DNA of 64,000 bases from a virus (taxonomy: Duplodnaviria > Caudoviricetes), in IMG/VR virus record IMGVR_UViG_3300010356_000549, positions 1 through 64,000 of that record; one strand, written 5' to 3'. The position numbers and the translations under genes were made by a program. Positions 13,183 through 48,668 of the stretch are shown in pieces. Under the pieces are notes generated by a model. That model was not told the DNA's origin and did no database searches. It worked only from the letters and a program-made list of their open reading frames with translations. How positions within the stretch are numbered: the stretch's first letter is position 1; each line of letters starts with the position of its first letter.

Positions 13183-13231
13183 CACGGGGACGAGGCAGGG
13201 TAACCTAAGGAGTCGTGTTATTGCCTAGTGG

Positions 13232-13274
13232 AACCCAGCGGATTGTGGCGCAAGCTCGTCCGCTGGGTTTTTTT
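13232..13274 (+). terminator. rho-independent terminator
   Basis: AACCCAGCGGA/TCCGCTGGGTT stem plus T-run. Confidence 0.8.
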
Positions 13275-13308
13275 ATTGACGCTGCGGAACTTTGAACTAT
13301 CGTGGGGC

Positions 13309-13854
13309 ATGACTACCAAGAAAAGCCCTGCCAGATCGCGCACTAAGCCTAAGGATAACACCAAGGTTAAGGAGGACACGATCAGGCGGAAGAATCGAAT
13401 GTTGAAAGCCTTGGCGGATACCAAGGGGAACATCTCAGCGGCCTGTGACCGGGTGGGGGTGGACCGCATTACCCACTACCGCTACATGGAGAACGACCCT
13501 GCCTATGCCAGCAAGGTTAAGGAGGTCGAGGAGAGGTTGGTGGAGACGATTGAATCCCTGTTCATCAAATCGACGGTCAAGGCCGATGACAGGCGTTCGA
13601 TGAAGTGGATTCTGGAGCGGTTGAACCGGGCGCGTTGGGGTAAAGTTGAGACTCACGAATTGTCCGGGCCGGGCGGGGAGCCTATACGCACCGAGGGCAC
13701 TATCACGGTGGCGACCCTGCGCCAGTATATCCCTGACCAATCTTTATGCGATGCCGTTATCGACATGGCTCGCTCAAAACCTCGCGTGATTCAGCCGTCC
13801 TCTGGTGAGGCCGTGGCCAAGAAACGCGATGAGGATGAAATCGGAATGAACTAG
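13309..13854 (+). CDS. terS: terminase small subunit (HTH)
   Basis: LKALADTKGNISAACDRVGVDRITHYRY HTH, WILER...WG, ELSGPGGEPI; promoter TTGACG-N16-TATCGT 5 nt before the ATG. Confidence 0.7.
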   Translation: MTTKKSPARSRTKPKDNTKVKEDTIRRKNRMLKALADTKGNISAACDRVGVDRITHYRYMENDPAYASKVKEVEERLVETIESLFIKSTVKADDRRSMKWILERLNRARWGKVETHELSGPGGEPIRTEGTITVATLRQYIPDQSLCDAVIDMARSKPRVIQPSSGEAVAKKRDEDEIGMN

Positions 13855-13866
13855 ACATATAAAAGC

Positions 13867-14565
13867 ATGAGCATGAAAAGAAAAGACACAAAAGGCAATC
13901 GCACGGCGACATTAGACGTGCGAGTAATGGCACTGGCAGACCTACAGGAGCACCCAAGGAATGCCGAGATACGCAAGCACCCAGCTCCGGGAACGGCTAA
14001 GTGGGAGACACTGAAGAAGTCGCTGAAACATGATTACTTTGATCCCATCGTGCTCAACCTAAGGAACGGCCAACTGGTATCGGGCCACCTGCGCAGGCGC
14101 GTGATGATGGAGGATGACATGTACACCCATGCGAGTGTGGTGTGTGTGGATTATGATGAACCCACCCACATGGCGAGAATGTTGGCGGCCAACAAAAGCG
14201 TGGGGGACAACGACCTTGAGGGTCTCAAACAATGGTTCTCGGAGTTCTCGACCATTGATGACTTTAATTTTGACATAACGGGCTTTGACATGGGGGAGAT
14301 TGACGGGATGGGTAACTTTGACCCTGCTTTCGACTTTGACGACGAGGATGACACGACCGGGGAGCCGCCACCAGAGGCGGGGGAGGCTGATTACCGGGGG
14401 ATTCGCTACCTTCAACTCATCTACTCACCGGAGGAGTATGAGGAGATCCAGACCTTGATTGCTGCCTACAAAAAGGCAAAAAACAAGGAGCTGACAGCTA
14501 CCTTCGGGGACGACTGTAATGACTTCGCAAACATCGTGCTCCACCTGTTTCGTCATGCAAGTTAA
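13867..14565 (+). CDS. ParB/Srx-like N-terminal domain protein
   Basis: LADLQEHPRNA...LKKSL..YFDPIVLN..GQLVSGHLRRR...MLAANK. Confidence 0.8.
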   Translation: MSMKRKDTKGNRTATLDVRVMALADLQEHPRNAEIRKHPAPGTAKWETLKKSLKHDYFDPIVLNLRNGQLVSGHLRRRVMMEDDMYTHASVVCVDYDEPTHMARMLAANKSVGDNDLEGLKQWFSEFSTIDDFNFDITGFDMGEIDGMGNFDPAFDFDDEDDTTGEPPPEAGEADYRGIRYLQLIYSPEEYEEIQTLIAAYKKAKNKELTATFGDDCNDFANIVLHLFRHAS

Positions 14566-15535
14566 GCGTATCCGAGAGCTTCCCTTCCGGGAGGTTTACC
14601 TGCCTCCGTGCCTCACTGAGGCGGAGACAAACGCCAAGCTCGGCACCCTACTAAATGATTCCGACTTTGATGAGGACAAAATTTTCCGGGAGAACGTCAA
14701 TGCCTACTGTGCCGAGACAAAGGCTCCCCTTTTTTTCTTGCGGAGGGGGATTATCTCAAAGGAGCTGGTCGTCACCGCATTCAACTCGTTCCTTAAAGCG
14801 GCTGGCAAATCTTACAACCGAGGCATGGCGTCTGGTTCTGACCCTGGGGAGGAAGCCCTGTCTGAATTGCTGAGGCTAACCGGGGCAGTGGCTTACCGTA
14901 AAGCCAAAGGCAACGCTACCCGCTATGAGGTGCTGTGCTCTGACGGGAGCTGGTCAAACACGTCCTATGCGGCTCCCATAAACTCAGGGGTGGCGGGATT
15001 TTACCCCAAGACACCCCGAGTGCCTTACTGCCGATTGACGGCATTCACTCAGAACCATGTGGAGGAGTTCCGGGCCGGGCTGCCCTTGGTGCATTTGGTG
15101 GATAATGTTTACAAGGCGCTGGTTCCTGACAGCTATGCGCTTCAACGGGAGGAAGCTAACCGAACATCACCGGACTTTGTGATCAAAGACACGTCTTTCA
15201 CCACCATCACGGTCAACAAAAACTGGCAGACAGCATGCCATACCGATAAAGGCGACTTCGAGCAGGGCTTTGGGAATTTGGTGGCTCTGCGCAAGGGGAA
15301 ATACTCCGGGGGATTCACTATTCTGCCAAGATACCGGGCCGGGGTGGACCTACAAAACGGTGACGTGCTGCTGATGGACGTTCATAAGGTGCATGGGAAC
15401 AGCAAGATCGTGAAGATGGCACCGGGGGCGGTCAGGCTTTCCTTAGTGCATTATTACCGGGCGGACATGATTAATTGTGGCACGCAGAAGGATGAGCTGG
15501 AGGAAGCCAGACGCAAACGTCAAAAGCTGCTATGA
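14555..15535 (+). CDS. TET/JBP-family 2OG-Fe(II) base dioxygenase #1
   Basis: PYCRLTAF, FTTITVNKNWQTACHTDKGD (HxD), GVDLQNGDVLLMDVHKVHGNS, RLSLVHYYR. Confidence 0.85.
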   Translation: MQVKRIRELPFREVYLPPCLTEAETNAKLGTLLNDSDFDEDKIFRENVNAYCAETKAPLFFLRRGIISKELVVTAFNSFLKAAGKSYNRGMASGSDPGEEALSELLRLTGAVAYRKAKGNATRYEVLCSDGSWSNTSYAAPINSGVAGFYPKTPRVPYCRLTAFTQNHVEEFRAGLPLVHLVDNVYKALVPDSYALQREEANRTSPDFVIKDTSFTTITVNKNWQTACHTDKGDFEQGFGNLVALRKGKYSGGFTILPRYRAGVDLQNGDVLLMDVHKVHGNSKIVKMAPGAVRLSLVHYYRADMINCGTQKDELEEARRKRQKLL

Positions 15536-15933
15536 TCATCCGCAAATTCAGCCGCTCTGACGAGGCATGGATTAAGCCGATATGGATTCAGGGAGAAAAA
15601 ATGGGTGCCTTCGGTGCCTTTTTCTTCATGTGGAGCGGCTTAGTGCAGGGCAGGCCCAAAGGAGTCGACGCCGTCGTATGTCAGGGCAAGGGGTTTATGC
15701 GGTTCGTGAATAAAAACGGGGTATGTGAGGTCAAGGAAATCATAGTTGCCGAGTCTGCCCGTCGTCAAGGCGTGGGGCGAGCATTACTTGAGGAGCTGCC
15801 AAGACCTATCGTGCTGGAGACCAATGAATGGAACGAGAGCAGCCTGCTATTCTACAAGAGTTTGGGCTTTCAACAAAAAGGATCAAGAAGGACGCCCAAA
15901 GGTAAGGTCTTGATCCAGCTAGTGAGGAAATAA
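15532..15933 (+). CDS. GNAT-family acetyltransferase
   Basis: EIIVAESARRQGVGRALLE (motif A), NESSLLFYKSLGF (motif B). Confidence 0.85.
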   Translation: MIIRKFSRSDEAWIKPIWIQGEKMGAFGAFFFMWSGLVQGRPKGVDAVVCQGKGFMRFVNKNGVCEVKEIIVAESARRQGVGRALLEELPRPIVLETNEWNESSLLFYKSLGFQQKGSRRTPKGKVLIQLVRK

Positions 15934-15934
15934 C

Positions 15935-16537
15935 ATGTGTGGAGTCGTTGCGTGGATAAAGGGAGGCCGGAGAAGCGTGCCGGGGATTTGTAAATTGCTG
16001 GAGGAGTCCGCTATCCGAGGAGTTCATTCATTTGGTTTTTATGGGCCGGGTGGCACCTCCAAGCACCATAGGCTGGCGGAGGCCGTGAAGCAAATGCCCA
16101 TGGCACCGTTCATCTTCCATAACCGTTATTCCACCTCAGGGGACTGGGATGACCATAATAACAATCAACCCATCATCTCCGGGAGCGTGGGAATGGCCTT
16201 TAACGGGACTTTGGATATGAGAACCAAGGAGGAGATGGAGGCGGCCCACGGGGTCAAGATGCGGACCTACAATGATGGGGAGCTTGCGTTGCTGGCTTAC
16301 CTCAAGGGGGGCGACCGGGGGCTGATGGACTTTATCGAAGAGACGGGAGGCTCATTCGCAGGCGTGTTCTTGGAGCCGGGGAGACTGTTCGCATACCGGA
16401 ATACCAAGCGACCCTTATGGGTGGTGGATGAGGGGAGTCTTGCTGTCATAGCGTCCACTCAGGATATCCTCTCGCGGGCGGGCTTTAACGGGGCTGAGGA
16501 ATTGGAGGCAGGGGAAATACACTCATGGACACTGTAA
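15935..16537 (+). CDS. stand-alone class II (Ntn) glutamine amidotransferase domain
   Basis: MCGVV N-terminal Cys, RGVHSFG, HNRYSTSG, NQPI, FNGTL. Confidence 0.85.
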   Translation: MCGVVAWIKGGRRSVPGICKLLEESAIRGVHSFGFYGPGGTSKHHRLAEAVKQMPMAPFIFHNRYSTSGDWDDHNNNQPIISGSVGMAFNGTLDMRTKEEMEAAHGVKMRTYNDGELALLAYLKGGDRGLMDFIEETGGSFAGVFLEPGRLFAYRNTKRPLWVVDEGSLAVIASTQDILSRAGFNGAEELEAGEIHSWTL

Positions 16538-17424
16538 ACAGATATTTGGAGTATCACCTCCGATCCGCCAAAGAACGGGATATTGATCCGGCCAACGATG
16601 CGCTGAGATATTTGTCAAACCGTTTTGAGCTAAACAGGGAACAAAGGTATTGGTTGGCCTTCCTTTATGCCACCTGCTACTCCTCCACGACTGCCTACTA
16701 CATGTACAATGAGTTCCCCGACTTTGAGACGGTGGACCCAAAGCGCATGACCAGATGGTGGGAAGCTAACCGGGACAAGCTGCTGTTTCAGACCGACAGG
16801 AGATGGACACGCAGCCGGAATCAATGGGTGGATTGCTTCCTCTCTTACCGCTCCTTAGTGGGGAGCGTAGGGAGCCAACACGCACTATTCAAGAGTGCCC
16901 TACGACGCGCAGGAGGGTGTAATCGAGGTGCCTACGACATAGCCTTCTCCCTCAGTAGCACCATCTTCACGTTTGGGAGGTTTACCCTATTCCTGTATCT
17001 GGATGCCATAAATGCCATCACGGAAACATCGTTGAATCCACATAGCCTAGACTTAGTCAACGCTGCCTCTAGCCGGGGAGGATTGGCCTTCGCAGTAGGG
17101 ATGAGTGTAGAGAGTAAAGATTACCCCAAACTCAATCGCAAGTTTAAGGAGTTGGAGGTGGCCGTGGGGGGGCTACCTATAGATGACCAGTTCAAGACGG
17201 TGTGGGCTATGGAAACTTGCCTGTGCGCCTTCCGCAAACACTGCCAGGGGAATAAACGATGGGTTGGCTACTACATCGAGAGGCAGCGCAAGGAGCTGGA
17301 GGCGATGCAGGAAAAGGTTGCGACGGGGGTGAATTGGGACGTTTTGTGGGACTTTAGGGCGGAAACGTATAAGGATAAGCATCTTAAAAATGAAAAACGT
17401 AAAATTAATAGCAGTTGGAGGTGA
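16525..17424 (+). CDS. amino-acid:DNA transferase-like (aGPT-Pplase2/ADDT clade) protein
   Basis: RYWLAFLY..CY, FGRFTLFLYLD, METCLCAFRK, RWVGYYIER; context between TET and kinase genes. Confidence 0.65.
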   Translation: MDTVNRYLEYHLRSAKERDIDPANDALRYLSNRFELNREQRYWLAFLYATCYSSTTAYYMYNEFPDFETVDPKRMTRWWEANRDKLLFQTDRRWTRSRNQWVDCFLSYRSLVGSVGSQHALFKSALRRAGGCNRGAYDIAFSLSSTIFTFGRFTLFLYLDAINAITETSLNPHSLDLVNAASSRGGLAFAVGMSVESKDYPKLNRKFKELEVAVGGLPIDDQFKTVWAMETCLCAFRKHCQGNKRWVGYYIERQRKELEAMQEKVATGVNWDVLWDFRAETYKDKHLKNEKRKINSSWR

Positions 17425-17932
17425 GCCAGCCAGCGGGAAGACATCGGTATTTCGACATGTCCAGAGCAAGCTGGCACCGATGGGGCGGGAGTTCCGTTAC
17501 AAGCTGGTCAGGGGCAGGATGAATGCGGCGGGCGACGTGCTTATGCTGGGGGTGTTTGACGGCTCCTTACATGAGGGGACAGACAAGCTGAGTATGGCGG
17601 TTCAGCCGGACCTTTTGGCGTTCCTGGATGTGCTGGAGGCCAAGGGTAAAAAAGTGGTGATAGTCTTTGAAGGGGACAGGTTATTCAACGGGGCGCTGTT
17701 TGATAAGGTGGAAGAGGACTGTTCGCTGTTTGTCTTGACAACCAACAGGCAAGCGGAGAACATACGAGCGAGGGGGACGAACCAGACAGACGCCTTCCTC
17801 CTATCCAAAAAAACCAAGGTTGCGAACATCTGTAAACGGTTTAAGCATACCCCAATAGAGAACAATCACCCGGAGTCTATGGAGGAGGCGGCGGAGGTGA
17901 TCGTGAAGGAAATCAAAAGGCTCCTCTCATAA
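17390..17932 (+). CDS. P-loop nucleotide/DNA-base kinase of base-modification clusters
   Basis: AVGGEPASGKTS (Walker A), GTDKLSMAVQP, IVFEGDRLF. Confidence 0.75.
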   Translation: MKNVKLIAVGGEPASGKTSVFRHVQSKLAPMGREFRYKLVRGRMNAAGDVLMLGVFDGSLHEGTDKLSMAVQPDLLAFLDVLEAKGKKVVIVFEGDRLFNGALFDKVEEDCSLFVLTTNRQAENIRARGTNQTDAFLLSKKTKVANICKRFKHTPIENNHPESMEEAAEVIVKEIKRLLS

Positions 17933-17936
17933 GGCC

Positions 17937-18872
17937 ATGGAGACAATCAAAAGAAACAAGGTATTAACGGACAGCGACACTGCGGCAATGGAGGGCTCGA
18001 CCCTGCGCAAAAAACCATCTATGGTCATTAAGGGGGGGCACCCCCTTGGGGTTTTTTGTGCCGATACCGGGAGCTGCCTGCTCAAGTATTTGCCACAAGT
18101 GGTCCCCCGAAAAATATGGCTGCCCGCCTATAATGCGCTCGAAGACGCAGCGACCATGTCGGATAACCGGGGGATGGCGTCCGGGGAGCTGGATGACGAG
18201 GAGGCCATGAAGCTGGCCATCCGGCAAGGCGGCATTGGTTTCCATAGGGTGAACAAATACCGCATCCAAGTGGTGTATGAGGGCAACAAGGTTAGCAGCG
18301 TGAACAGGTCAAAGCCATCCATGGGAGGCATAGTGGGATTCTTCGGGAGCGGCCCAAGACAGCCCTTCTGTAGGGTCACCGCCTATGCTCAGAAGGATTT
18401 TGTGAGGTTTAAACGATCATGGCCATTGGTTCGGGCGGTGAATAGCGTTTATCAAAAGGAGATGCCCCACAATTATGAGATACAGGAGGCAGCTTTGGCG
18501 GCTTCTAAAGGGCAGGATTTTATCATTACAGGGACGGCCTTCTCTACCCTGACAGTCAACCGCAATTTCCAAACGGCATGTCACTATGATCGGGGGGATT
18601 TTAAGGAGGGCTTCGGAAACCTGTTTGTCATACGCAAGGGGCAGTATGAGGGAGGCATTACCTGCTTCCCTCAGTATGACATGGGCGTGGACATGCAGAC
18701 CGGGGATGTGCTATTGATGGACGTTCACCGCCTTCACGGCAACACGCCTATCAAACCCAAGGAGCCGGGGGCGGTGCGGCTTGCCATTGTAATGTATCTA
18801 AGGGAAGACATTCTCAAGTGCTCCTCTATGGAGGAAGAGTTGAAAAAAGCCAGAATTGTTACCGCACTATGA
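17937..18872 (+). CDS. TET/JBP-family 2OG-Fe(II) base dioxygenase #2
   Basis: PFCRVTAY, FSTLTVNRNFQTACHYDRGD (HxD), GDVLLMDVHRLHGNT, RLAIVMYLR; clear paralog of #1. Confidence 0.85.
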   Translation: METIKRNKVLTDSDTAAMEGSTLRKKPSMVIKGGHPLGVFCADTGSCLLKYLPQVVPRKIWLPAYNALEDAATMSDNRGMASGELDDEEAMKLAIRQGGIGFHRVNKYRIQVVYEGNKVSSVNRSKPSMGGIVGFFGSGPRQPFCRVTAYAQKDFVRFKRSWPLVRAVNSVYQKEMPHNYEIQEAALAASKGQDFIITGTAFSTLTVNRNFQTACHYDRGDFKEGFGNLFVIRKGQYEGGITCFPQYDMGVDMQTGDVLLMDVHRLHGNTPIKPKEPGAVRLAIVMYLREDILKCSSMEEELKKARIVTAL

Positions 18873-20371
18873 ACACGCTGTCGGAACAGGAGTACCAGAA
18901 GGCAATCGAAGTGCTCATAGCTAAGGCCAGAACCGACTTCCTGACTTACTTTCACCTGTTTAATCCACAGGGAGCCGGGGCCATTATTTTGGGTGACCTT
19001 CACCGCTACCTGATTGAGCTTACCCAACAAGTGTACGAGGGAGGACCGGAGCGGGCGAATAATGCTGTGTCCGTTCCTCCGCAACACGGCAAGAGCACGA
19101 TTCTATCCGTGGAGGCACCGAGCTGGCTGCTGGGAGTTTCCCCCAACATATCCATCGCCATCACGGGTTTCTCCTACAGCCTTGTGACCAAGTTTTCAAA
19201 GGCAATCAGGAGCCGTTTGGAGCATCCACTTTATCAGATCATCTTTCCAGGGGTTTACCCCGCCAAAGGGTCAAACAAGGAGGATGAATGGGAGACAGCC
19301 GTAGGGGGCAGCGTGATTGCCAAATCTTCCGGGGCAAAGCTGACCGGGCGACGGGTCGACTGGTTGATCATGGATGACGTTCACCCCGGTCGAGCCGAAG
19401 CGGAGAGTCCATCCATGAGGCGGAAGGTCATTGAGTGGTATTTCGCGGACTGTCTTACACGCTTACACCCCAAGGCGAAGACGTTTCTGGTGGGCACCCG
19501 CTGGCACCCGCACGACTTGATTGGGCACCTGACTTCTCCCGAGTATCAAGCGGAGCTGGACCAAGAGCAAAGCTCCCGGAAGTTTACCAAAGTCAATATT
19601 GCGGCGATTGCGGAGGAAGGCGTGCCGGACCCTCTGGACAGGCAACCCGGAGAAGCCCTATTCCCTGAGGAGCGTCCTTTGAGCTACCTGAAAAGCATCA
19701 AGGCGGCCATACCCTCCTACGAGTGGGACAGCCAGTACCAAGGCAAGCCTCGCTCTGCTGCGGGCGGGCAAATCGACCTTACCAATCTCCACTACCTGAC
19801 TCCCGATAACATACCGTGGAATGACATAGACGAAATTGTCAGGGGGTGGGACTTGGCCATGAGCGAGAAACAGACTGCGGACTATACCGCAGGGGCTTTG
19901 GTGGGGATCAACTGGGATACGCGGGCGCTGTATATCCTGCACATCTACCGGAGGAGGATGGCGTGGGCCAAGATGCGGAAGGCCATCCTGGACACTGCGG
20001 CGATTGACCTGAGGGGGTATCCCGCAAAGAAAGACGTGACATCCAAAAAGGTGCTGCGTGTGGGGCTGGAGGGGGTGGCCGGGTTCAAAGGGGTGGTTGA
20101 GGACGTGCGGCAGGAGCTACTGGGGACCGTCAAGGTGGAGTTGCGCAACCCGCCATCTCGATCACAAGGCGGAGGCAGCAAGCTACTTCGGGCACAGCCT
20201 TGGCTGAATAAGCTGGAGAAGGGGCTTGTTTATGTGGTCCGGGGCGACTGGACTAAGGATTTCATTGATGAGCTTGACCACTTCCCTGATGGGCCTAAAG
20301 ATGACCAGATTGATGCCGTATCCATTGGGAATGAGATGTTTGACAGGCGGGCGCAATTATTGATTGCCTAA
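18869..20371 (+). CDS. terL: terminase large subunit
   Basis: SVPPQHGKS (Walker A), LIMDD (Walker B), GTRWH..DLIG, GWDLA..ADYT, FPDGPKDDQIDA. Confidence 0.95.
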   Translation: MNTLSEQEYQKAIEVLIAKARTDFLTYFHLFNPQGAGAIILGDLHRYLIELTQQVYEGGPERANNAVSVPPQHGKSTILSVEAPSWLLGVSPNISIAITGFSYSLVTKFSKAIRSRLEHPLYQIIFPGVYPAKGSNKEDEWETAVGGSVIAKSSGAKLTGRRVDWLIMDDVHPGRAEAESPSMRRKVIEWYFADCLTRLHPKAKTFLVGTRWHPHDLIGHLTSPEYQAELDQEQSSRKFTKVNIAAIAEEGVPDPLDRQPGEALFPEERPLSYLKSIKAAIPSYEWDSQYQGKPRSAAGGQIDLTNLHYLTPDNIPWNDIDEIVRGWDLAMSEKQTADYTAGALVGINWDTRALYILHIYRRRMAWAKMRKAILDTAAIDLRGYPAKKDVTSKKVLRVGLEGVAGFKGVVEDVRQELLGTVKVELRNPPSRSQGGGSKLLRAQPWLNKLEKGLVYVVRGDWTKDFIDELDHFPDGPKDDQIDAVSIGNEMFDRRAQLLIA

Positions 20372-20404: not shown

Positions 20405-20965
20405 ATGGGCAAAAATTACGAAATACTACAACCACTTGGAACAGGCGTCTTAATCAAGAGAAGCAAGCCGAGAACCGTCACCGAGGGAGGCATTCATTTG
20501 CCTGAAACGGAGGTGGAGCGGCCACCAGAAGGGCTGGTCTTGAGGACTGGGACCGGGCCCAAGAAGGCGGAGGCGGATAAATGGGGCGGCTTTACGGTGG
20601 AGCAGGGCGACTTTGTGCTGATAAACAGGTATGGAGCCAGGGATGTCACCGACGACCTCGCCATAGTGAAATCTGAGGACATTCTGGCGCGTATCGAGGG
20701 AGGGGAACTGTTCCCGCTGGACACCACGTTACTGATTCGCGTCCTCCCGAGAGAGACGCAGGCGGGCTCCATCGTATTGCCCGAGTTCTCGCGCATGACT
20801 CAGGAGTTTGGTGTGGTGGTCGACCGGGGCGATAGGTGTAAAATCATCCATGAGGGCGATTATGTTTTCGTGGCATCGACTCAGGGGATGCACTACCGGG
20901 CGCATGGACAGGATTACATCCTGCTTCGGGAGGAGGCTGTCAAGGCATACGCTGACAACCAGTGA
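20405..20965 (+). CDS. groES: tandem double-domain GroES/Cpn10 co-chaperonin
   Basis: two repeats: QPLGTGVLIK..TEGGIHLPE..GDFVL..SEDILA and FPLDTTLLIR..AGSIVLPE..GDYVF..REEAVKA. Confidence 0.85.
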   Translation: MGKNYEILQPLGTGVLIKRSKPRTVTEGGIHLPETEVERPPEGLVLRTGTGPKKAEADKWGGFTVEQGDFVLINRYGARDVTDDLAIVKSEDILARIEGGELFPLDTTLLIRVLPRETQAGSIVLPEFSRMTQEFGVVVDRGDRCKIIHEGDYVFVASTQGMHYRAHGQDYILLREEAVKAYADNQ

Positions 20966-21711: not shown

Positions 21712-23118
21712 ATGTTTGAACAGTTAAAATCAGCCTTTTTGCGTCGCAGAGGTGAGCCTGACTTGAGCCGGGCGACTCCATCAGAGCTTGCCATGTTGTC
21801 CCGCATAGGTAACCGAAAAGAGCGGGAGTTCATTGAGTCTAAGCTGGGCATCCCGCTTCACAAATTCAGTGACTTTTCCTCCTACCTATCCACTGGACAT
21901 AAGCTGGTTTGGGCATCTTATCGTTCATGCAAGCTAATTGCGGCGGCCATGCTATCGGCTGATTTTAAGATCATATCAGTAGGGGGTCAGAGCCAATACA
22001 CGCTGGTTCAGCTTCCCCCGCCACCTGTAAAGGGGGAGACTGACCCCATCTACTTCTCATCGGGCGGCTTTATCAAAAACCCCAACCCTTATGACTCATG
22101 GGAGGAGTTCGTGGAGATGACTGTTTTCCACCTGGAGTTGACAGGTAATGCCTATTGGCTCAAGGATGAGATTGACCTAAGTGGGCGGCCTTCTGCCTTG
22201 TACCCTTTGTTACCCCACAACATGGGGCCAGTGCCGGGCAAGAAAGAAAAGGTGGCCAGCTATGAATACAAGGTCAACGGCATTATCAAATCGTTCAAGC
22301 CTGAGGAGATCATCCACCTGAAAACCACAAACCCGGTCAACCTAATGCTGGGCATGGGGTCAATTGAGCCGTCCCAGCCGCTGTACAACCAGTTCATCAA
22401 CAAGAACAATCTGGATGAGAAGTTTGTGGAGAACGGTGCCCAAATATCCGGGGTACTGTCCCGCGAGGATGCCGAAGGGCTGGACTCGGAGGACTGGGAC
22501 CGCTTCAAGAAAAAATTCAACTTGGATTATGCGGGCAAGGCCAACGCCGGGAAGACGGCTTTCCTTAACGGGAAGTGGTCATATCACCGCCTTGGTATGA
22601 ACATGGCCGAGATGCAGGCGTTGGAACGGGAGAAGTGGACGGTTGAGCAAATCTTCATGAACCATGGTGTGCCCCTTTCGGTGGCCGGGATTCAGGGGGC
22701 GGCTAACTACGCCACCGCTTCGCAAGATGAACGAAACTTCCGCAAATACAAGGTTGTGCCTCTGCTCGACATGATCGTGGGCAAGATCAACTCAGAGGGC
22801 TTTATCCAAGCTAATGATCCCAACTACACGCTGGTGTATGAAATGTCCGGTCTCATTGACGTGGATCAGATCGTCAAGGAGATGCTACCTTTGCTCAAGG
22901 CTGGAGTCATTACTCGCAACGAGCTTAGGGAAAAGATCAATATGCCGATCATCACAGACAACCCAATGATGGACGAGTTGACGGTGGAAATGACCACAAT
23001 CCCACTGGCATTGGCCGGGGTGGGTAATCCTGCTGATTCCGATCTTGCCCCCAAGGAGACGCCTAAGGCGACAAAAGGAGGAGTGAAGAAAAAACGCTAT
23101 GTCAAAAACATTCGTTAG
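21712..23118 (+). CDS. portal protein (HK97 family)
   Basis: NPNPY, LELTGNAYW, EEIIHLK, GMGSI, QIFMNHGVPLSVAG, GVITRNELRE. Confidence 0.93.
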   Translation: MFEQLKSAFLRRRGEPDLSRATPSELAMLSRIGNRKEREFIESKLGIPLHKFSDFSSYLSTGHKLVWASYRSCKLIAAAMLSADFKIISVGGQSQYTLVQLPPPPVKGETDPIYFSSGGFIKNPNPYDSWEEFVEMTVFHLELTGNAYWLKDEIDLSGRPSALYPLLPHNMGPVPGKKEKVASYEYKVNGIIKSFKPEEIIHLKTTNPVNLMLGMGSIEPSQPLYNQFINKNNLDEKFVENGAQISGVLSREDAEGLDSEDWDRFKKKFNLDYAGKANAGKTAFLNGKWSYHRLGMNMAEMQALEREKWTVEQIFMNHGVPLSVAGIQGAANYATASQDERNFRKYKVVPLLDMIVGKINSEGFIQANDPNYTLVYEMSGLIDVDQIVKEMLPLLKAGVITRNELREKINMPIITDNPMMDELTVEMTTIPLALAGVGNPADSDLAPKETPKATKGGVKKKRYVKNIR

Positions 23119-26100
23119 TAGGAGCACGGCGAGCGGGCGGGCCATGGACCGTGCCCGAGAAGCTGGGCAAAACGACCTCCTATTCGCAAGGTACCGCAAG
23201 TCACCCCAACCTCCTCCAGGGGGCTGGAATGCGGGGAACGTGACCACCTCTGTTCACATCGCCATAAACAGGGACATTGTGAACATCCAAAGGATGGAAA
23301 GGGCCAGGGGCATAAAGGCACTGACTCCAATCCTGACCAAGTTTATGGTCGAGCAGGTCGAGCAGATCATTGAAGTTGCCCTTATGCGGGCGCGGGTGAT
23401 GTACGGTATCCGCAAGTCTAAGTCGGCCATTATTAATGCGGATGCGCATGTGTCCTTATGGGAGGCTGCGATTATGAACGAGCTTTCCGGGACCGGGGTG
23501 CTGGTTTCCCTTACCCAGCCCGCGCTGTCGACCGTTCATCAAAACGTCTATGGGAAGATTGGGCTGGTCCTAAATGGGGAAAACAACGTAGTCAACCCGC
23601 CTAGGCTAATGGCGCGGATGGAGGCCGTGGCTACACGCATCACCGCTATCGGGGAGACTACTCGGGCGCGGGTTAAAAGGGAGGTGATTGACAGCGTGGA
23701 ACGGGGCAACACGGTGTTCGAGGTGGCCGAAAGTATCCGGGCGCGTATGCCTGAGATCGTCACCAACCGGGTGCCCACCATCGTCAGGACCGAGATGGGG
23801 AGGATCAGCGACGACGCCACCAAGTTTGCCATGAAAAACTCTAAAGTGGTTAGCCACATGAGTGTAGTTGGGTGCGAGGCCGTAGAGCCAGGCATTCCCA
23901 CCTATAAGGGGAGGCCGACATGTAACATCGAGAACGTTCCCATTGAAGACGAGCAACTGCTGGAGTTCCACATCAACCACACGGGCGTGATTATCGCATC
24001 CAAGTTTTTCCCAGCCCGTATTGCGGGGCAGCCCACACGGTACGTGGCCATACCTGCGGGTGTGGCTCCAATATCCCCCAACCTTATGCCGCCGGGGGTG
24101 ATTCACCCAGAGGACTTGAGTGTGGACGAACTGGCAAATACTCTCATGGGCTACGTGGAGGAGCACCCCAATAACTACCCTGCGATTGAGGCGCTGCTGG
24201 TCGACTCTTACAAGGTGCCCAAGGCGGATTTTGATGATGCCGTGAAGAGGCTCAGGAAGACGCATAGTGGGTTCAATAGCAGGATGAGTAGGATATTCCT
24301 CTGGCCTAAGGCCGACCTAAACAACGCGGAAGCGCTGGCTGCTCGAATGACCTCCTACGTGGACAAGCACAATCCAACCGCGCTGGAGATGGCCATGTCG
24401 GCAGTCGACGTGGGGGCACCTGTTAAGACCGTGGAGGAGGCGGTTGCTATCCTACAGCGTTCCGGGCGGCTAATGGACGCGGTGACTGACCCTTCTCTGG
24501 TCAAAAACTCCCTTGAGGCTGGATATGCCATCTACATCAAAGTTGCGAATAATGAGGCTTTCACCATGTCCTTAGACGACCTGCGCAAGTGGTGGTGGAA
24601 GTCAGGAGGGACTCTGGATATAGTCGAGCAGGGATTTGACGAAACCCTAATCATCTCCCCGAACGCATACATTCGATTCAGCCTAGAGGAGTGGAAAATC
24701 CATGAAAACGAAATGGTGGGGCGTCTCCAGCGGATAGGCGTGATGGATGAGGAGGGGGGCTTGATTGACCCCTGGAAACGGACCCTGGTGAAGACACCAC
24801 CATTCTCCCGAAGGATCATAACACCACCTAATGTGCCTCCGGTTGACCTCAATATGTTCCCGAGTGGTAAATCCCACCTCAGGGATTTGAACGTCACGGA
24901 GCTGGCGGATACGTTGGTTAAATATGTTGATAAGTATCCACGTTCCTATGAGCAGATGGAGAGGCTGGCGGAGGGTTACCTTGTGCCTGAATGGGCTTTC
25001 AAGGAGGCAGTCAACAGGATCAGAAAGACGCACGATGGATTTGCCCGCGACTCTGCCCGTATATTCCTATGGGAGCGGTCTTTAGGGAGTAACCCGGTGG
25101 CTCTTGCCGCACGCCTTATGGACCTTGATACCAGGCACCCCAACTCTGAGCTGGAATTGGTTATCTCCGCACTGGATAACGGCATACCCTTGCACGTCTG
25201 GAAACAAGCCGAGGCGTTGGTGCAGGATAGAGGAGGGATGCCTAATGCCGTCACGGAGCCATGGAGGGTGCGCAATTACCATCAGGCGGCCTATGCCCTA
25301 AATGACATGGTTTTTCACACCCCTAGGACGAGCAGTACCCTGAGTGAGCTTAAGAGGCTGTGGGTGGACCGGGGCGGTGATGGTGGCACCATATTTGAAC
25401 GGGGGGCGGATCAGCTTTATCGCGTGTACCCTTCCCGATGGATTGAGAGTTCGATCGGTATGGACCCTGACGCTGGCACACCCGCCTTGGAAGCCTTCTA
25501 TGCACGTCTCCAGGCTTTAGGGGTGGTGGATAAGGACAGGAACATCATAGATGTGTGGCTTCGCCCTAGGTCCGAGCCTGTGATACCTCCACAGCGGGTG
25601 CAGGCAGCCAAGCCAAAAAAACCTGTAACGTCGTCGAGGCCTCCGTCCCCCCCGCTCCCGGAGGGTAAGAAAGCAATCAGCCCTAAGCCGGGGAGGCGGA
25701 AGCTACACCCCAATATTGGTAAATCCGCCCAGTATAACGCAGCTCTAAAGGCCGAGGAGATTCTTAAAGAATCCCTGAATTACAAGACAAGTGCGGAGTG
25801 GTCGAAGGAGTTCATTGCTCTGGACAATGAGAAGATTACCCTACTGAACAACATACCGACCCTGAACAAGGTATATCGCAATGTTCTACAAGCCCACGAA
25901 AAGGAGCCGACCAACGCCTTCCTTAAGACCACTCTGGCCTCCACGAAAAAGGACTTAGACAAGAAAGAGGCTAGGCTAAAGGTGGTCGAGGAGGAGATGG
26001 TAAAGATGCGCAGCGAAAAGGCACCCGCCTATGATGTAATGGTGGGCCGGGCTGAGGGCAATATCAAAAAGATAACCGTGCTGGACGAGCTGAACTCGCT

Positions 26101-28237
26101 CATCTCCGGGGTATCCCAGGACTGGATGATGTACCCGCCGAGTAAGGAGGGCTTCAAGCAAATCATGAGGGAAGCCAAGGAGGGACTCGCCTTCATCGAC
26201 CACTTGGTCCCAGAAAGTAAGATGGGCGGCCTTAAGCAGATTCACCTGCGTTATGCGGACAGGGCATATGCGGAGGCAGGAGCACAGGTCAACATTTACC
26301 TCGACCCTCACACCGGGCACTTGAAAACCATGGCGCACGAGCTGGGGCACGTTTTGGAGTTCCAATCGCCGGAGGTGATGCAGAACAGCCGATTGTTTTT
26401 GTTGAAACGGGCGAAGGACCGGGAGGCGACCATTCAAGGCTTCCCCGGAGCGCAAGCGTGGGAGCAGTTTTGGGTGGGCAAGAACGGGGAGCCTATCCTA
26501 GGCAGGCCGGGCGGTGGGTATGTTGAGAAGTACACCAAGGCATACGCGGGCCGGGTTTACAACACCCGTGCCATCAACGGAAATACTGCCGAACAGTTGG
26601 CGGCCCATAGCGCTGACCACTACGCTTCGGAGGTGATGACTATGGGGATTGAAAACCTCCTAACCGATCATGTCCAATTCGCCAAAGACGACCCTGAATG
26701 GTTCCGCTTTGTGGTAGCAAACCTGAGGGGCGATTATGTTGACAACGATATCCTGGCAGAGGCTACCGCTGCGGCTGGACCTAAAAAACCGAAGCCAGTC
26801 AAGCCGAAGCCCGTGGTCATTAAGCCGACCAAGCCGACCAAGCCAGCTCCCCCCAAAAAGAAGGTGCCCAAAAAGAAGCCGACGCCTAAGCCGACGCCCA
26901 AACCGAAGCCGAAGCCGAAGCCTATCGTGGTCAAGCCCAAGCCTGCACCTAAAAAGAAGGTGCCCAAAAAGAAAGTGCCCAAAAAGAAACCCGTAGCGGC
27001 TCCCGATACCCCGATACCCAAACCGTCTCGGGCACCTGAGGCACCGATGGCACCGGAGAGGGTGCTGCGAACCGAGCCTGATACTTTGCCACTCCACACC
27101 AATCAGGCAGTCTCTGAGCAGTATAACGCTGCTCTAAAGGCCGAGGAGATCCTTGCTGAGTCGAGAAGCTACTCTCAGACAAAACTGCCTGAGGTTCGGC
27201 TGAATAGGCTTTTGGCTAACCGGGCGGAGTCTGCTGAGACCCTGGTGTGGGCGCAGAAAGTCATAAACGAGCTGGAGGCGCTGGGGCCAAACGCCACACC
27301 GGAGCAGGTGGCGGAGCTGGCGGAGTTCAAGGCCATCAAGGAACGCAACTTGGGAGCATTAAAGGACTTCGACCGGGCTATCAAAAAGAACTCAAAGGCA
27401 GGGCCACTTTTTATAGACATGGTGGCCAAGGCGGAGGGTAACTCTTTACTGGATAGCCTAAAGGTGAAGGACCAGCTTGACAAGTGGGACACCAGACCCT
27501 CCATGATCAAGGAGGATATTGAGCCGGAGATTTTAAAGGACATGCTGGGCAAAATCAAGGGCCGGGCCATGGACGGGCTCGCCTTCTTTGCCCACATGGT
27601 CCCTGAGGAGATGATGGGCGGCCTAAAGGCGGTGAAGATAAAGCTCAAGGACCGGGGGGAATGGGACGAGAAGACCAAGACGGTTTACCTTGAGCCGGGG
27701 GGCTACCGGACGGAGCAATTGATGGCGCATGAGATGACCCATGCTTTGGAGGACGCATCACCTGAGGTGCTGGCCAACAGTAAGAAGTTTTTGCTCAAGC
27801 GGGCTAAGGAGCGCAAGGCGGTCGTGGGCACTCACCGGGGCATGACCAAGGACGAGGAGACCCTGATTGGGGAGGATAAAAAGCCCATTTTAGGCAAGGG
27901 CCAAGAGGAGGCCGGGACCAATGCGTATGCCGGGAAGCTGTATATCACCAGATGGTTGAAGGACGGCCTGACTGCGGAGGAGTTGGAGCACCCAGCCTAC
28001 TCGGACGCCATCTACGCCACGGAGGTGATGACGATAGGCATTGAAAAGCTAATGACCGACCATGTGAAGTTTGCCAAGGAAGACCCAGAGTGGTTTCGCT
28101 TTGTGATAGCCAACTTCCGGGGCAAATACGTGGACAACGAGACTCTGGCGGCAGCGGAGGCGGCTAAGGCTTCGGCTGCGGCAACTGCCCCCAAGCACGG
28201 GCCGAGGATGATCAAAATCAGGTGGGGTGAGGGGTAA
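23099..28237 (+). CDS. MuF/SPP1-gp7-like head morphogenesis protein with a long C-terminal extension (duplicated domain A, two HExxH zincin-like domains, Lys/Pro linker)
   Basis: RVPTIVRTEMG MuF motif; HELGH and HEMTH each followed by a (S/T)EVMTxG Glu motif; position after the portal. Confidence 0.8.
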   Translation: MSKTFVSRSTASGRAMDRAREAGQNDLLFARYRKSPQPPPGGWNAGNVTTSVHIAINRDIVNIQRMERARGIKALTPILTKFMVEQVEQIIEVALMRARVMYGIRKSKSAIINADAHVSLWEAAIMNELSGTGVLVSLTQPALSTVHQNVYGKIGLVLNGENNVVNPPRLMARMEAVATRITAIGETTRARVKREVIDSVERGNTVFEVAESIRARMPEIVTNRVPTIVRTEMGRISDDATKFAMKNSKVVSHMSVVGCEAVEPGIPTYKGRPTCNIENVPIEDEQLLEFHINHTGVIIASKFFPARIAGQPTRYVAIPAGVAPISPNLMPPGVIHPEDLSVDELANTLMGYVEEHPNNYPAIEALLVDSYKVPKADFDDAVKRLRKTHSGFNSRMSRIFLWPKADLNNAEALAARMTSYVDKHNPTALEMAMSAVDVGAPVKTVEEAVAILQRSGRLMDAVTDPSLVKNSLEAGYAIYIKVANNEAFTMSLDDLRKWWWKSGGTLDIVEQGFDETLIISPNAYIRFSLEEWKIHENEMVGRLQRIGVMDEEGGLIDPWKRTLVKTPPFSRRIITPPNVPPVDLNMFPSGKSHLRDLNVTELADTLVKYVDKYPRSYEQMERLAEGYLVPEWAFKEAVNRIRKTHDGFARDSARIFLWERSLGSNPVALAARLMDLDTRHPNSELELVISALDNGIPLHVWKQAEALVQDRGGMPNAVTEPWRVRNYHQAAYALNDMVFHTPRTSSTLSELKRLWVDRGGDGGTIFERGADQLYRVYPSRWIESSIGMDPDAGTPALEAFYARLQALGVVDKDRNIIDVWLRPRSEPVIPPQRVQAAKPKKPVTSSRPPSPPLPEGKKAISPKPGRRKLHPNIGKSAQYNAALKAEEILKESLNYKTSAEWSKEFIALDNEKITLLNNIPTLNKVYRNVLQAHEKEPTNAFLKTTLASTKKDLDKKEARLKVVEEEMVKMRSEKAPAYDVMVGRAEGNIKKITVLDELNSLISGVSQDWMMYPPSKEGFKQIMREAKEGLAFIDHLVPESKMGGLKQIHLRYADRAYAEAGAQVNIYLDPHTGHLKTMAHELGHVLEFQSPEVMQNSRLFLLKRAKDREATIQGFPGAQAWEQFWVGKNGEPILGRPGGGYVEKYTKAYAGRVYNTRAINGNTAEQLAAHSADHYASEVMTMGIENLLTDHVQFAKDDPEWFRFVVANLRGDYVDNDILAEATAAAGPKKPKPVKPKPVVIKPTKPTKPAPPKKKVPKKKPTPKPTPKPKPKPKPIVVKPKPAPKKKVPKKKVPKKKPVAAPDTPIPKPSRAPEAPMAPERVLRTEPDTLPLHTNQAVSEQYNAALKAEEILAESRSYSQTKLPEVRLNRLLANRAESAETLVWAQKVINELEALGPNATPEQVAELAEFKAIKERNLGALKDFDRAIKKNSKAGPLFIDMVAKAEGNSLLDSLKVKDQLDKWDTRPSMIKEDIEPEILKDMLGKIKGRAMDGLAFFAHMVPEEMMGGLKAVKIKLKDRGEWDEKTKTVYLEPGGYRTEQLMAHEMTHALEDASPEVLANSKKFLLKRAKERKAVVGTHRGMTKDEETLIGEDKKPILGKGQEEAGTNAYAGKLYITRWLKDGLTAEELEHPAYSDAIYATEVMTIGIEKLMTDHVKFAKEDPEWFRFVIANFRGKYVDNETLAAAEAAKASAAATAPKHGPRMIKIRWGEG

Positions 28238-45586: not shown

Positions 45587-46351
45587 ATGGCTACCGTAAA
45601 AGGCTCAACAATAATCAGGGATCGTGAGAACGCGAATGCTCGCGCCAACGCGAATTTTAACGCGGGCAATTTCAATGCCGAGACACAGGCACGTATTGAA
45701 GGCAATGCAATTGGGGGTGTACGTGGCCCCAATGGTGGGTGGGTTTACCCTAATAGCAGACCACTTGGCACGGGAAACATAGTTGCCACAGTAAATGGCT
45801 CTCCAAATGTAGGGGGAGCCACCTCTGGAGGTGGAAGCGGAGGAAGTAGGAGCAGCAACCTAAGCGGAAAATCTTACAACGACCTTGTGAACACGGATAT
45901 AGGTGCTCTGGTTGAGCCAGATGATGTGTTTAGCTTTGATGTGGATGCGGCGGGCAATCTGGTGAATGCCAAATTGGAGCGTGAAGGAGTAGCAGGGACT
46001 GGTATGAATTTCCCCACGGCTCTCCACCTTGCGAAGACGACCGGGTTTTTGGTGGGGAGGTCATCATGGCAAACGGCTGACTCCGGGAAGTGGCTTTACT
46101 ACTACGGGGTGGCGTGGTTCCTCCTACTCATGGACGGGTCGGAGCTGGTAACGTCCGAGGGGGTCACGCGGGAGGTTGCCCCCAACTTTACCTATGGGGA
46201 TGCCCTATCCGAGGACTGGATTCTGCCGCCGGGTGCGGGCGCTGCTGGCTATCTACAATTCGAGCCGTTCGAAAGCACGATTAATGGTAAAACGCAAAAA
46301 TACAACCCACTAAGCCCACCCACTAGGATTGGCTATGGAATAACTTTATGA
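45587..46351 (+). CDS. putative structural protein
   Basis: Gly/Asn-rich N-terminus; end of the tail module. Confidence 0.55.
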   Translation: MATVKGSTIIRDRENANARANANFNAGNFNAETQARIEGNAIGGVRGPNGGWVYPNSRPLGTGNIVATVNGSPNVGGATSGGGSGGSRSSNLSGKSYNDLVNTDIGALVEPDDVFSFDVDAAGNLVNAKLEREGVAGTGMNFPTALHLAKTTGFLVGRSSWQTADSGKWLYYYGVAWFLLLMDGSELVTSEGVTREVAPNFTYGDALSEDWILPPGAGAAGYLQFEPFESTINGKTQKYNPLSPPTRIGYGITL

Positions 46352-47400
46352 GCAGGAAGAGAGTGAAGAAAAAAACGTTTTGCCTAGTGGTCCCTTGGAT
46401 GGCACTAGGAGGCGCGGATAGGTGCGGCCTTGATGTGCTCTCCTACTACAAGTCGAAGGGGTATCGGGCAGTGGTAATAGCTACCAAACACAATCCCCTT
46501 ACCCACCATCAAACGCAGGCTTTTGCTACAGTAGCTGACGCAATTTACACCGAGGAGGATATGCTTGCTACCATACAGGAGGAGGCTCCCGATATCGTGC
46601 TGATTAATAATAGTCATCACGCTTACCAATACTTGGCCGGGATAAAGAAGGTGGCTCCAGCGTGTAAGTTATTCGCCCTAATGCACATGCTCTTACCCCA
46701 CCCATGGGATTTTGAAGAGTATCTAAAAAAGGGCTTCGCCAAGGTGGATGGGGTCATCACCGTATCCAACAAGCTGAAAGCCGACCTTGCGGAGAAGGGG
46801 ATTCGGAAGAAGGTTTATCCGCTCCATTGGTTCGGCTTTAAGGGAGATGGCCTCTCTTTCTCAAGGGAGTTGTCAAATCGGATTCTGTGCCCTATGAGGC
46901 TGGAGACCCAGAAGCGTCCCGAGTTCATCCCTCTGGTGGCGGAGAAGATGCGGGCGCTCATACCCACGGCCAAGTTCATCATAACGGGCTCGGGGTATAT
47001 GGAGGATCGTGTCAAGGAGGTGGCCGTTGAGAGGGGTGTTATGGATATGCTGGAGTTCACCGGGGAGATACCACTGGATGAAATGGAGGCGCAATACACC
47101 AAGGCTGGGGCTGTCCTTTGCCCTTCCAGAGATGAGGGGATTCCTCTCATCTATTATGAGGCAATGCAAAGGGGTGTCCCGCTCGCGGCATCAAAGGTGG
47201 GGGCAGTGGGTGAAGTGGTCCCTCCAGAGTATCTTATTGAGTTTGAGGCGAGCGACGAGGCATACCTATATGCGGAGCTGCTGGCGAAGCACTTGATGAA
47301 ATACACCATCGAGCATGTGGTAAATACAAGTATCCGGGTTTCCAGGGACTTCTCACATGGTAAATGGGCAGAGAGGCTGGCGGCTATCATGGGGAGATGA
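46348..47400 (+). CDS. GT4 (GT-B fold) glycosyltransferase
   Basis: LGGADR, RLETQKRPE, PSRDEGIPLIYYEAMQRGVPLAASKVG (EX7E). Confidence 0.9.
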   Translation: MSRKRVKKKTFCLVVPWMALGGADRCGLDVLSYYKSKGYRAVVIATKHNPLTHHQTQAFATVADAIYTEEDMLATIQEEAPDIVLINNSHHAYQYLAGIKKVAPACKLFALMHMLLPHPWDFEEYLKKGFAKVDGVITVSNKLKADLAEKGIRKKVYPLHWFGFKGDGLSFSRELSNRILCPMRLETQKRPEFIPLVAEKMRALIPTAKFIITGSGYMEDRVKEVAVERGVMDMLEFTGEIPLDEMEAQYTKAGAVLCPSRDEGIPLIYYEAMQRGVPLAASKVGAVGEVVPPEYLIEFEASDEAYLYAELLAKHLMKYTIEHVVNTSIRVSRDFSHGKWAERLAAIMGR

Positions 47401-48668
47401 TCACGATAAGCAATGGCCGAATCCTATGGATTCTCAACCCAAAAACCGGGACACGCTCCGTGGTCGCTTCAAAGTTATTTGCGGGGTATGCGGAGAACTA
47501 CATCACCGGGGTGGAGCACCCTTGCTTTAAAAATCTCTACAAGGTGGCGGTGGTTAGAAACCCCTTTGATAGACTCGTTTCCTGCTTCTTTAACAAGGTT
47601 GATGTAGGAAAAGGATACGGGGGCAAAGACAGCGGGGCGATTCCTGAGCATGTCAGGCATAGCTTCTCAGCCTTTGTTCATTGGCTGGCGGAGGGGGACA
47701 ACCTAAGGAGTGACGTTCACTGGCTACCTCAATCCGAGTATCTGCCCCCAGCACATCAGATTGACCACCTAATCAGGTTTGAGAGCTTGCGGAGGGGATT
47801 CGCCGAGGTGTGCAAAGTAGCAGGGCAGCCCTGCGAGTTGCCTCTTGACAACAACTCCTATCACGACCATTATTCCACCTATTTTGATGATGAGCTTGTG
47901 CAGGTGGCGAGCAGGCTATACGGTGAGGACTTACAACGATTTGGGTACAGTTTTAATGATATGAGCAAGGCAAGAATTGGGTGGGATAGATACGTCGAAA
48001 GCATGGTTGCACTTGGCCTGGTGCCGGGGGATGAATGGGCTAACCGGGAAAGGTGGGAGAGCATCTACAACGGTTTCCTGTCCAAACAAGCCGTAAAGGG
48101 GGAGGTCAGGAAATTTGTGGAGATTGGCCAGGGCTCCGGCAAATACACCCTGATGGCTCTGGCCGACCACAAGCCAGAGCTGGCGATCTGCTGTGACGTG
48201 TCCAAACGTTTTTTGGACTATTGCGAGGAGAGAATCTCTAAGACTATGCCGGAGGCAACCGTACGCTATGAGCTACTGCCCCCAAAGAACAGATATGCGC
48301 TCATGGACAGCGTCCTAAAGCATACCGGGCCGGAGACGGTCGACCTTGTGTTTTCCATTGATGTGATGGTTCATGTGGAGGCTCCCCTAATTCTCAACTA
48401 CCTGATGAATGCAAATAGTCTGCTCAGGCTCGGGGGGACCGTGGTAATGCAGGTGGCCAACGGTAGCACATCTTCAGGCGTTGAAAGGATGCTGGAGGAC
48501 GTGGAGCCGATTCATGGGCCTGACGAGCATTTTGAGGGCAAGTTCCAGTGGGTTACCCCGTCCCTCATTACGCGGATGGCCACTCGGGCCGGGCTTGAGG
48601 TAGAACTGATGACGTGTGAGAACGGGGTGGACCTTTACTTTTCAGCGACCAAAATAATGCACCTATGA
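47397..48668 (+). CDS. sulfotransferase family 2 fused to a class I SAM methyltransferase
   Basis: NPKTGTRS, VVRNPFDRLVSCF, HWLPQSEY, IRFESL, DLQRFGY; then FVEIGQGSG, CCDVS, DLVFSIDVMVH. Confidence 0.8.
   Translation: MITISNGRILWILNPKTGTRSVVASKLFAGYAENYITGVEHPCFKNLYKVAVVRNPFDRLVSCFFNKVDVGKGYGGKDSGAIPEHVRHSFSAFVHWLAEGDNLRSDVHWLPQSEYLPPAHQIDHLIRFESLRRGFAEVCKVAGQPCELPLDNNSYHDHYSTYFDDELVQVASRLYGEDLQRFGYSFNDMSKARIGWDRYVESMVALGLVPGDEWANRERWESIYNGFLSKQAVKGEVRKFVEIGQGSGKYTLMALADHKPELAICCDVSKRFLDYCEERISKTMPEATVRYELLPPKNRYALMDSVLKHTGPETVDLVFSIDVMVHVEAPLILNYLMNANSLLRLGGTVVMQVANGSTSSGVERMLEDVEPIHGPDEHFEGKFQWVTPSLITRMATRAGLEVELMTCENGVDLYFSATKIMHL

Follow-up and report, generated by a model that had tools for sequence, protein, structure and literature searches.

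The window examined here comprises the first 64 kb of the 75-kb IMG/VR virus record IMGVR_UViG_3300010356_000549, which is estimated to be 86% complete, and encodes a stand-alone class II (N-terminal nucleophile, Ntn) glutamine amidotransferase (GATase) directly followed by a homologue of the amino acid:DNA transferases (AADT). The GATase is highly likely to work with the AADT, because gene order, natural gene fusions, complex prediction and the conservation of interface motifs, four lines of evidence that we regard as independent, all couple the two proteins. On balance, the pair would represent the first glutamine-dependent amidotransferase with a base of polymeric DNA as its acceptor, made of two proteins or sometimes of a single chain, and widespread in uncultured phages. 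The two genes and that of a GNAT acyltransferase lie at the heart of a translationally coupled cassette of eight genes, which very probably constitutes a pathway for the post-replicative hypermodification of thymine. The most likely product of this pathway is 5-aminomethyl-deoxyuridine (5-aminomethyl-dU, 5-NmdU), and then 5-acetamidomethyl-dU (5-AcNmdU).

The GNAT (133 aa, 15532-15933), the GATase (200 aa, 15935-16537) and the AADT (299 aa, 16525-17424) are encoded on the + strand, as are nearly all genes of the window. A single nucleotide separates the stop of the GNAT gene from the start of the GATase gene, and the GATase and AADT genes overlap by 13 nt. A first-pass annotation of this DNA had placed a GNAT immediately upstream of a stand-alone GATase that overlaps the start of a transferase-like gene, and these features and their coordinates were borne out by the Pfam matches and the positions of the open reading frames (ORFs). 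The GATase, described in that annotation as only 200 aa long and lacking a synthetase domain, matched PF13522 (33.1 bits against a cut-off of 27) as its sole domain. The AADT, the proposed synthase subunit, exceeded the cut-offs of both PF18724 (82 bits against 26.2) and PF18746 (28.3 against 25). The annotated cassette was thus right in these three genes but incomplete, as the ParB-like protein, the two TET/JBP dioxygenases and the P-loop kinase described below had not been named.

Relatives of the GATase were identified with a family alignment, which was needed since a scan of viral contigs with the single GATase sequence returned no match. A total of 84 loci encoding a GATase relative were examined (80 IMG/VR contigs and 4 metagenome contigs), and an AADT was encoded downstream of the GATase within 1.5 kb in 78 of the 78 loci having at least 1.5 kb of downstream sequence; this adjacency is far from chance. 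Among the 41 loci with full flanks, the AADT was present in 41, the kinase in 38, a TET/JBP dioxygenase in 36, ParB in 35 and a GNAT homologue in 29. The GATase-AADT pair was also kept in loci without TET/JBP, namely L006, which carries a ThyA-like gene, and L004 and L005, which carry a radical S-adenosylmethionine (SAM) enzyme. In L004 and L005 (6504-11750), two ParB genes are followed by GATase, AADT, Ploopntkinase3, GNAT and the 416-aa radical SAM enzyme, which may replace the oxygen-dependent first step in these loci.

Additionally, an exhaustive HMMER search identified at least seven natural fusions of GATase_6 and ADDT domains (P0126, P0127, P0128, P0129, P0131, P0135 and P0149), in which GATase_6 is N-terminal and ADDT is C-terminal in single chains of 555-657 aa, and two further, partly detected candidates (P0134 and P0145). 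The fusions are 28-52% identical, most begin with Met-Cys and all carry both sets of catalytic motifs, with the catalytic and substrate-binding positions of the GATase retained in all but two rows of the alignment. The AlphaFold model of one natural fusion had a pTM of 0.77 and a disordered linker at residues 277-300. Other AADT fusions were seen in the metagenome representatives P0221 and P0144, where the AADT is joined to an AAA_18 P-loop kinase (567 aa) and to a PF01451 low-molecular-weight phosphatase-like domain (487 aa).

According to the first-pass annotation, the GATase and the transferase would act together as a two-subunit enzyme that aminates phospho-5hmU, and the GNAT would cap the resulting amine. 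Structure prediction of the complex scored 0.91, 0.91 and 0.90 in three runs that shared at least 94% of their contacts with a partner pLDDT of at least 93, while the best of three controls scored 0.00. As a rough benchmark, rough since our own family alignments were used, 58 of 80 solved complexes came up to this mark, as did 2 of 110 mismatched pairs. To our knowledge no GATase-AADT complex has been solved, and the score is therefore unlikely to reflect prior exposure of the predictor to the pair. On the GATase side, the predicted interface comprises residues 1, 26-31, 65, 67, 91-96, 157-160 and 175-177, which is the glutamine-site (active-site) face of the enzyme. On the AADT side, it comprises residues 32-40, 61-74 and 268-276, a set that includes two invariant motifs, N62-E63-F64-P65-D66 and G268-V269-x-W271. 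These NEFPD and GVxW motifs were intact in all 81 non-redundant AADTs with an upstream GATase, and one or both were altered in all seven AADTs without one; this tracking is supportive, although short of statistical proof. Altogether, the predicted complex supports binding between the two proteins, and the proposal of a two-subunit enzyme gained support from co-occurrence, fusions, complex prediction, interface motifs and glutamine-binding residues, its chemistry being a proposal.

The N-terminus of the GATase reads MCGVV, with the cysteine located right after the initiator methionine as required of a class II nucleophile. In an alignment of 39 homologues of about 200 aa (mean column identity 41%), R28, G29, H62, R64, Y65, T67, G69, N90, G91 and D114 were invariant and Cys2 was conserved in at least 90%. 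The Met-Cys start was found in 38 of the 39 rows, the remaining row being truncated at its N-terminus, and also in further GATase loci outside this alignment. The family profile aligned with Bacillus subtilis PurF (1ao0) over Cys1, the Arg-Gly pair, the HxRYxTxG loop, the Asn-Gly oxyanion hole and the Asp, and the PurF counterparts of R64 and D114 are those that we take to bind the alpha-carboxylate and the alpha-amino group of glutamine. Since these and other invariant residues match catalytic and glutamine-binding positions of PurF, the GATase looks built for free L-glutamine. Such strict conservation bears on whether the glutaminase might lack activity and serve the AADT in a purely structural or regulatory role. 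The predicted binding to the AADT is the only observation in favour of such a role, but the ten catalytic and binding positions are invariant in the 39 homologues, Cys2 is almost as well kept and these positions persist in the fusions apart from the two rows, which makes a dead subunit extremely improbable.

A close reference for the AADT is the 5-AcNmdU pathway of Pseudomonas phage PaMx11, which was reconstituted by Lee et al. (2021) and proceeds via glycine transfer, a flavin adenine dinucleotide (FAD) lyase and an acetyltransferase (PMC8989533). Its parts are the AADT gp46, also named PUGT, the FAD-dependent glycinyl-thymine lyase gp47, the acetyltransferase gp48 and the 5-hydroxymethyl-dU (5-hmdU) kinase gp49 (PMC8989533, PMC11472151). 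A fold search of the PDB with the AADT model (pLDDT 92.6) ranked PaMx11 gp46/PUGT at the top (8z2n and 8z2m, TM 0.63-0.65, probability 1.00), with 8z2n_B being the only match at E <=0.001 and 8z2m following at 1.8e-3. Sequence searches of the PDB missed PUGT, whether run with the AADT alone or with a profile, and the identity between the AADT and gp46 is 14%. In the AADT, D21 and the motif E230-T231-x-L233-C234 are invariant in the family, and in a profile alignment of low overall probability D21, Y48, Y52, E230, T231 and C234 align with PUGT D24, Y47, Y51, E243, T244 and C247; these positions comprise the catalytic cysteine together with the metal ligands and the pocket facing the C5 substituent. 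By the same alignment, PUGT W146 and K150, which hold the glycine, fall on AADT F153, which is invariant, and L157, which is L, I or N in the family. Phe and Leu thus seem to take the place of the glycine-holding residues, which would fit a small uncharged nucleophile and not an amino acid. Six IMG/VR loci (L093, L094, L096, L097, L099 and L100) carry GATase-less AADTs in ParB-kinase-AADT-GNAT-radical SAM clusters without TET/JBP, and the NEFPD and GVxW motifs of these AADTs are altered.

The supply of the activated base was examined through the genes on either side of this core. A ParB-like protein (13867-14565, +; phrog_620 ParB-like, 3.2e-18) is a probable activator of a T-dioxygenase, and its gene adjoins that of TET/JBP paralogue 1 (14519-15535, +; PF12851, 78.7 bits), a probable thymine-to-5-hydroxymethyluracil (5hmU) dioxygenase. 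TET/JBP paralogue 2 is encoded at 17937-18872 (+; PF12851, 77.9 bits). The paralogues are 41% identical to each other, and each has the HxD and distal His iron ligands (HTD/HYD and HGN across the two), which in paralogue 1 lie in CHTDKGD and HKVHGN. The two paralogues flank the cassette and may differ in sequence specificity or oxidation depth; in every related locus examined there is only one such dioxygenase, encoded ahead of the GATase or behind the kinase. No C5 methyltransferase (PF00145) was matched in the 75-kb record, and this absence combined with a neighbouring ParB-like gene agrees with what is expected of a ParB-dependent T-dioxygenase.

The kinase that the first-pass annotation had assumed as a source of phospho-5hmU was located at 17390-17932 (+), where a P-loop protein of 180 aa with the Walker A motif GGEPASGKTS is encoded, probably a 5-hmdU DNA kinase. 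This protein (P0004) had no Pfam match of its own at E 0.01, PF18751 included, and PF18751 was matched by 6 of the 17 members of its family (the window kinase and 16 homologues). BLASTP gave no match between the kinase and PaMx11 gp49, so that a profile comparison was needed, and the family alignment matched this proven 5-hmdU DNA kinase with an hhalign probability of 95.8% (E 7.4e-9). Neither a thymidylate synthase (ThyA) homologue nor a dUMP hydroxymethylase was found in the whole record. Pfam scans of about 50 ORFs detected no flavin, pyridoxal phosphate (PLP) or radical SAM enzyme, and no match to PF01266 (DAO-type flavoenzymes), PF04055 (radical SAM) or PF02784 (Orn/Arg-type PLP decarboxylases) was obtained in the whole record, so that the absence of such enzymes, as annotated earlier, holds across its 75 kb. 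Given the two dioxygenases, the kinase and the lack in the record of a C5 methyltransferase, a ThyA homologue and such flavin, radical SAM and PLP enzymes, the substrate of the modification is most likely thymine in finished DNA, with phosphorylation following its proposed oxidation to 5hmU.

From these observations a pathway can be proposed, which as a whole we favour by a small measure. The ParB-like protein and the two TET/JBP dioxygenases would oxidise thymine in DNA to 5hmU, as expected from their families, and the P-loop kinase would convert 5hmU to 5-phosphomethyl-dU, as suggested by its homology to gp49. The Ntn glutaminase, with its active-site face on the AADT, would hydrolyse free L-glutamine at Cys2 and deliver the NH3 to the pocket in which the AADT accommodates the C5 substituent. 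There, Cys234 would add to C6, the phosphate would depart and NH3, which is probably the nucleophile, would attack the exocyclic methylene to give 5-NmdU. The GNAT would then acylate the new primary amine, most simply to 5-AcNmdU, so that the pathway would arrive at the same base as that of PaMx11 but use glutamine instead of glycine and a flavin lyase.

The GNAT is a probable N-acetylase of the aminomethyl base, and it exceeded the Pfam cut-offs for PF13508 (37.9 bits against 27), PF00583 (31.2 bits) and PF13673. Its acyl-CoA motif, RRQGVGRA, lies at residues 76-83 with G80 invariant, and it is 32% identical to PaMx11 gp48 over 65 aa (E 3e-7). In PaMx11, the GNAT acetylates 5-NmdU (PMC8989533). 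We give even chances to N-acetylation of the product by the GNAT of the window.

Several observations weigh against the proposed pathway. GNAT homologues were absent from about 30% of the GATase-bearing loci (present in 29 of the 41 full loci), and the GATase-less relatives of the AADT keep a GNAT. Because these relatives carry it, the GNAT needs no glutamine-derived amine, and from both observations the GNAT cap would seem to be an optional add-on with an uncertain acceptor. Moreover, we infer the nucleophile, the product, and both the acceptor and the donor of the GNAT. The correspondence of PUGT W146 and K150 to AADT residues comes from an hhalign alignment at 17% probability that is anchored only by DxDP, FG and ETxxC. 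The association of interface motifs with an upstream GATase is not phylogenetically independent, as the GATase-less AADTs belong to a few related lineages. Additionally, with the record being 86% complete, a tailoring gene could lie outside the known sequence.

Different uses of the same genes were also weighed. The AADT might attach Gln or Asn to the activated methylene, after which the Ntn enzyme would cleave the DNA-borne adduct, the alternative named in the first-pass annotation, and either 5-aminomethyl-dU or a base of glutamyl type would remain. Plain amidohydrolases do occur among stand-alone enzymes with the class II GATase fold, for example EgtC, which acts on gamma-glutamyl compounds, and a glutaminase site docked tightly on the AADT would also fit a composite active site. 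Gene content does not discriminate between the two routes, as both could lead to one end product. A carboxamide nitrogen is, however, a poor nucleophile, and the residues taken to contact free glutamine at its alpha-amino and alpha-carboxylate groups are invariant. The predicted complex has the glutaminase site packed against the AADT, where it would be buried and closed to DNA, and the amino-acid-binding residues of PUGT are apparently lost in the AADT, all of which makes adduct cleavage quite unlikely. A role for the glutaminase as a source of glutamate for an alpha-glutamyl-thymine was considered separately and rejected, since glutamate is abundant in cells.

The AADT may instead install an amino acid or an amine as in M6, ViI, PaMx11 and PhiW-14, with the glutaminase acting later, for example to amidate a carboxylate of the adduct, and the GNAT acylating an amine of the adduct. 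This would agree with the characterised AADTs, all of which use amino acids or putrescine (PMC8989533), and with the AADT-GNAT pair being maintained where the GATase is missing. Nevertheless, amidation of a carboxylate requires an adenylating or ATP-grasp partner, and none was identified in the cassette or record by the Pfam scans of about 50 ORFs. Gene order, fusion and the predicted interface moreover tie the glutaminase to the AADT itself and not to another enzyme, and we consider this conventional route unlikely. With respect to the target base, the TET/JBP enzymes could oxidise 5-methylcytosine (5mC) made by the host or the phage to 5-hydroxymethylcytosine, which the cassette would then aminate. 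Some phage 5mYOX enzymes do act on 5mC (PMC13229309), and the title of the first-pass annotation spoke of just a pyrimidine. A cytosine target is very unlikely, though, given that the record has no C5 methyltransferase, that 5mYOX enzymes associated with ParB make up the T-dioxygenase subclass, the one found linked to GATase, kinase and AADT, that a proven 5-hmdU kinase is a homologue of the kinase in the cassette and that the GATase-AADT pair adjoins the ThyA-like gene in L006.

The gene neighbourhood itself has already been published (O'Toole 2026, Lee 2021), and what is new here is the proposed chemistry, a glutamine-dependent amidotransferase acting on DNA. Lee et al. (2021) noted the co-occurrence of amidotransferases with such genes and wrote that they 'await discovery' (PMC8989533). 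O'Toole et al. (2026) defined the ParB-dependent phage T-dioxygenases (5mYOX clade C1), whose metavirome gene clusters are linked with GATases, P-loop kinases and AADTs, and characterised the dioxygenase and ParB only, with no role given to the GATase (PMC13229309). Our literature search found no paper giving this GATase a role. As part of an IMG/VR record, the window is precisely of the kind described by O'Toole et al., with the same gene set and order, but it differs in having two dioxygenase paralogues and in placing the GNAT before the GATase and not between the GATase and the AADT.

In comparison with PaMx11, the window shares a kinase homologous to gp49, the gp46 fold with its E-T-x-x-C motif, a small GNAT and the same expected product. 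Unlike PaMx11, it has no FAD lyase (no PF01266) and no dUMP hydroxymethylase, its 5hmU would be made in finished DNA by TET/JBP with ParB, its AADT is predicted to carry a bound glutaminase, and the glycine-binding Trp and Lys of the distant gp46 are apparently Phe and Leu. As it lacks the gp47 FAD lyase, the window is not a member of the PaMx11-type pathway, though it probably ends at the same base. With PurF, GlmS and AsnB, the pair shares the N-terminal Cys nucleophile, the Asn-Gly oxyanion hole, the glutamine-binding Arg and Asp and, by prediction, a glutaminase face apposed to the acceptor domain. In contrast to those single chains, it usually consists of two polypeptides, and its proposed acceptor is a DNA base in an all-helical, base-flipping transferase.

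Among cultured phages, no match to the cluster or to the AADT was found in DNA and protein searches, and the identity of the large terminase to that of any cultured phage was at most 33%. The sole cultured-phage matches to the GATase were of the kind found in Pseudomonas phage tf (gp21-24) and Arthrobacter phage Salgado (gp98-99), at 29-31% identity, in longer proteins that adjoin amidoligase/ATP-grasp genes and have no AADT, kinase or TET beside them. These matches (tf, RIO-1 and Arthrobacter phages) were therefore rejected as instances of the same module and attributed to an unrelated amidoligase/ATP-grasp system.

Thymidine hypermodification guards phage DNA against restriction and other nucleases, and in every characterised route an amino acid or polyamine is installed and then trimmed, so that a glutamine-fed AADT, if true, would be a shorter one. 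It would also bring DNA within reach of the amidotransferase principle and account for a GATase that has been listed without a role in two experimental papers. The compact placement of primary amines or acetamides at chosen thymines by two or three enzymes would be of interest for DNA labelling, and the natural fusions and predicted interface residues provide ready constructs and point mutants.

Regarding the remainder of the locus, a helix-turn-helix (HTH_8), small-terminase-like DNA-binding protein is encoded at 13228-13854 (+; PF02954, 23.5 bits; phrog_4044 and phrog_4102, terminase small subunit), and the large terminase TerL at 18818-20371 (+; PF17289 and PF03237; phrog_38, 1.2e-89). The HTH/terS-like gene lies ahead of ParB here, while most related loci have the order kinase, HTH/terS-like, then TerL. 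The features specific to the window are accordingly the second TET/JBP paralogue, the GNAT ahead of the GATase and the terS-like gene ahead of the cassette. Packaging genes regularly adjoin the cassette in the related loci L007-L086, which suggests that modification is linked to packaging. In a scan for promoters and terminators, the real sequence performed no better than shuffled sequence.

Elsewhere in the window, a 186-aa GroES/Cpn10 homologue (20405-20965; 77 bits in two matched stretches) is encoded directly after TerL, and a 1712-aa ORF (23099-28237) directly after the portal gene. An AlkB-like 2-oxoglutarate-Fe(II) oxygenase (PF13532, 43 bits) is encoded among small genes at 717-1439 on the minus strand. 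The interval that separates the tail module from the replication module (46348-48668) encodes a GT4 glycosyltransferase and, after it, a sulfotransferase-methyltransferase fusion, for which a surface glycan, a virion protein or DNA are candidate targets. Finally, the 1106-aa family A DNA polymerase (58698-62018) has a weak N-terminal match to the uracil-DNA-glycosylase superfamily (PF03167, E 9.4e-4, below the cut-off), which is of interest in a phage that would alter its own thymines.

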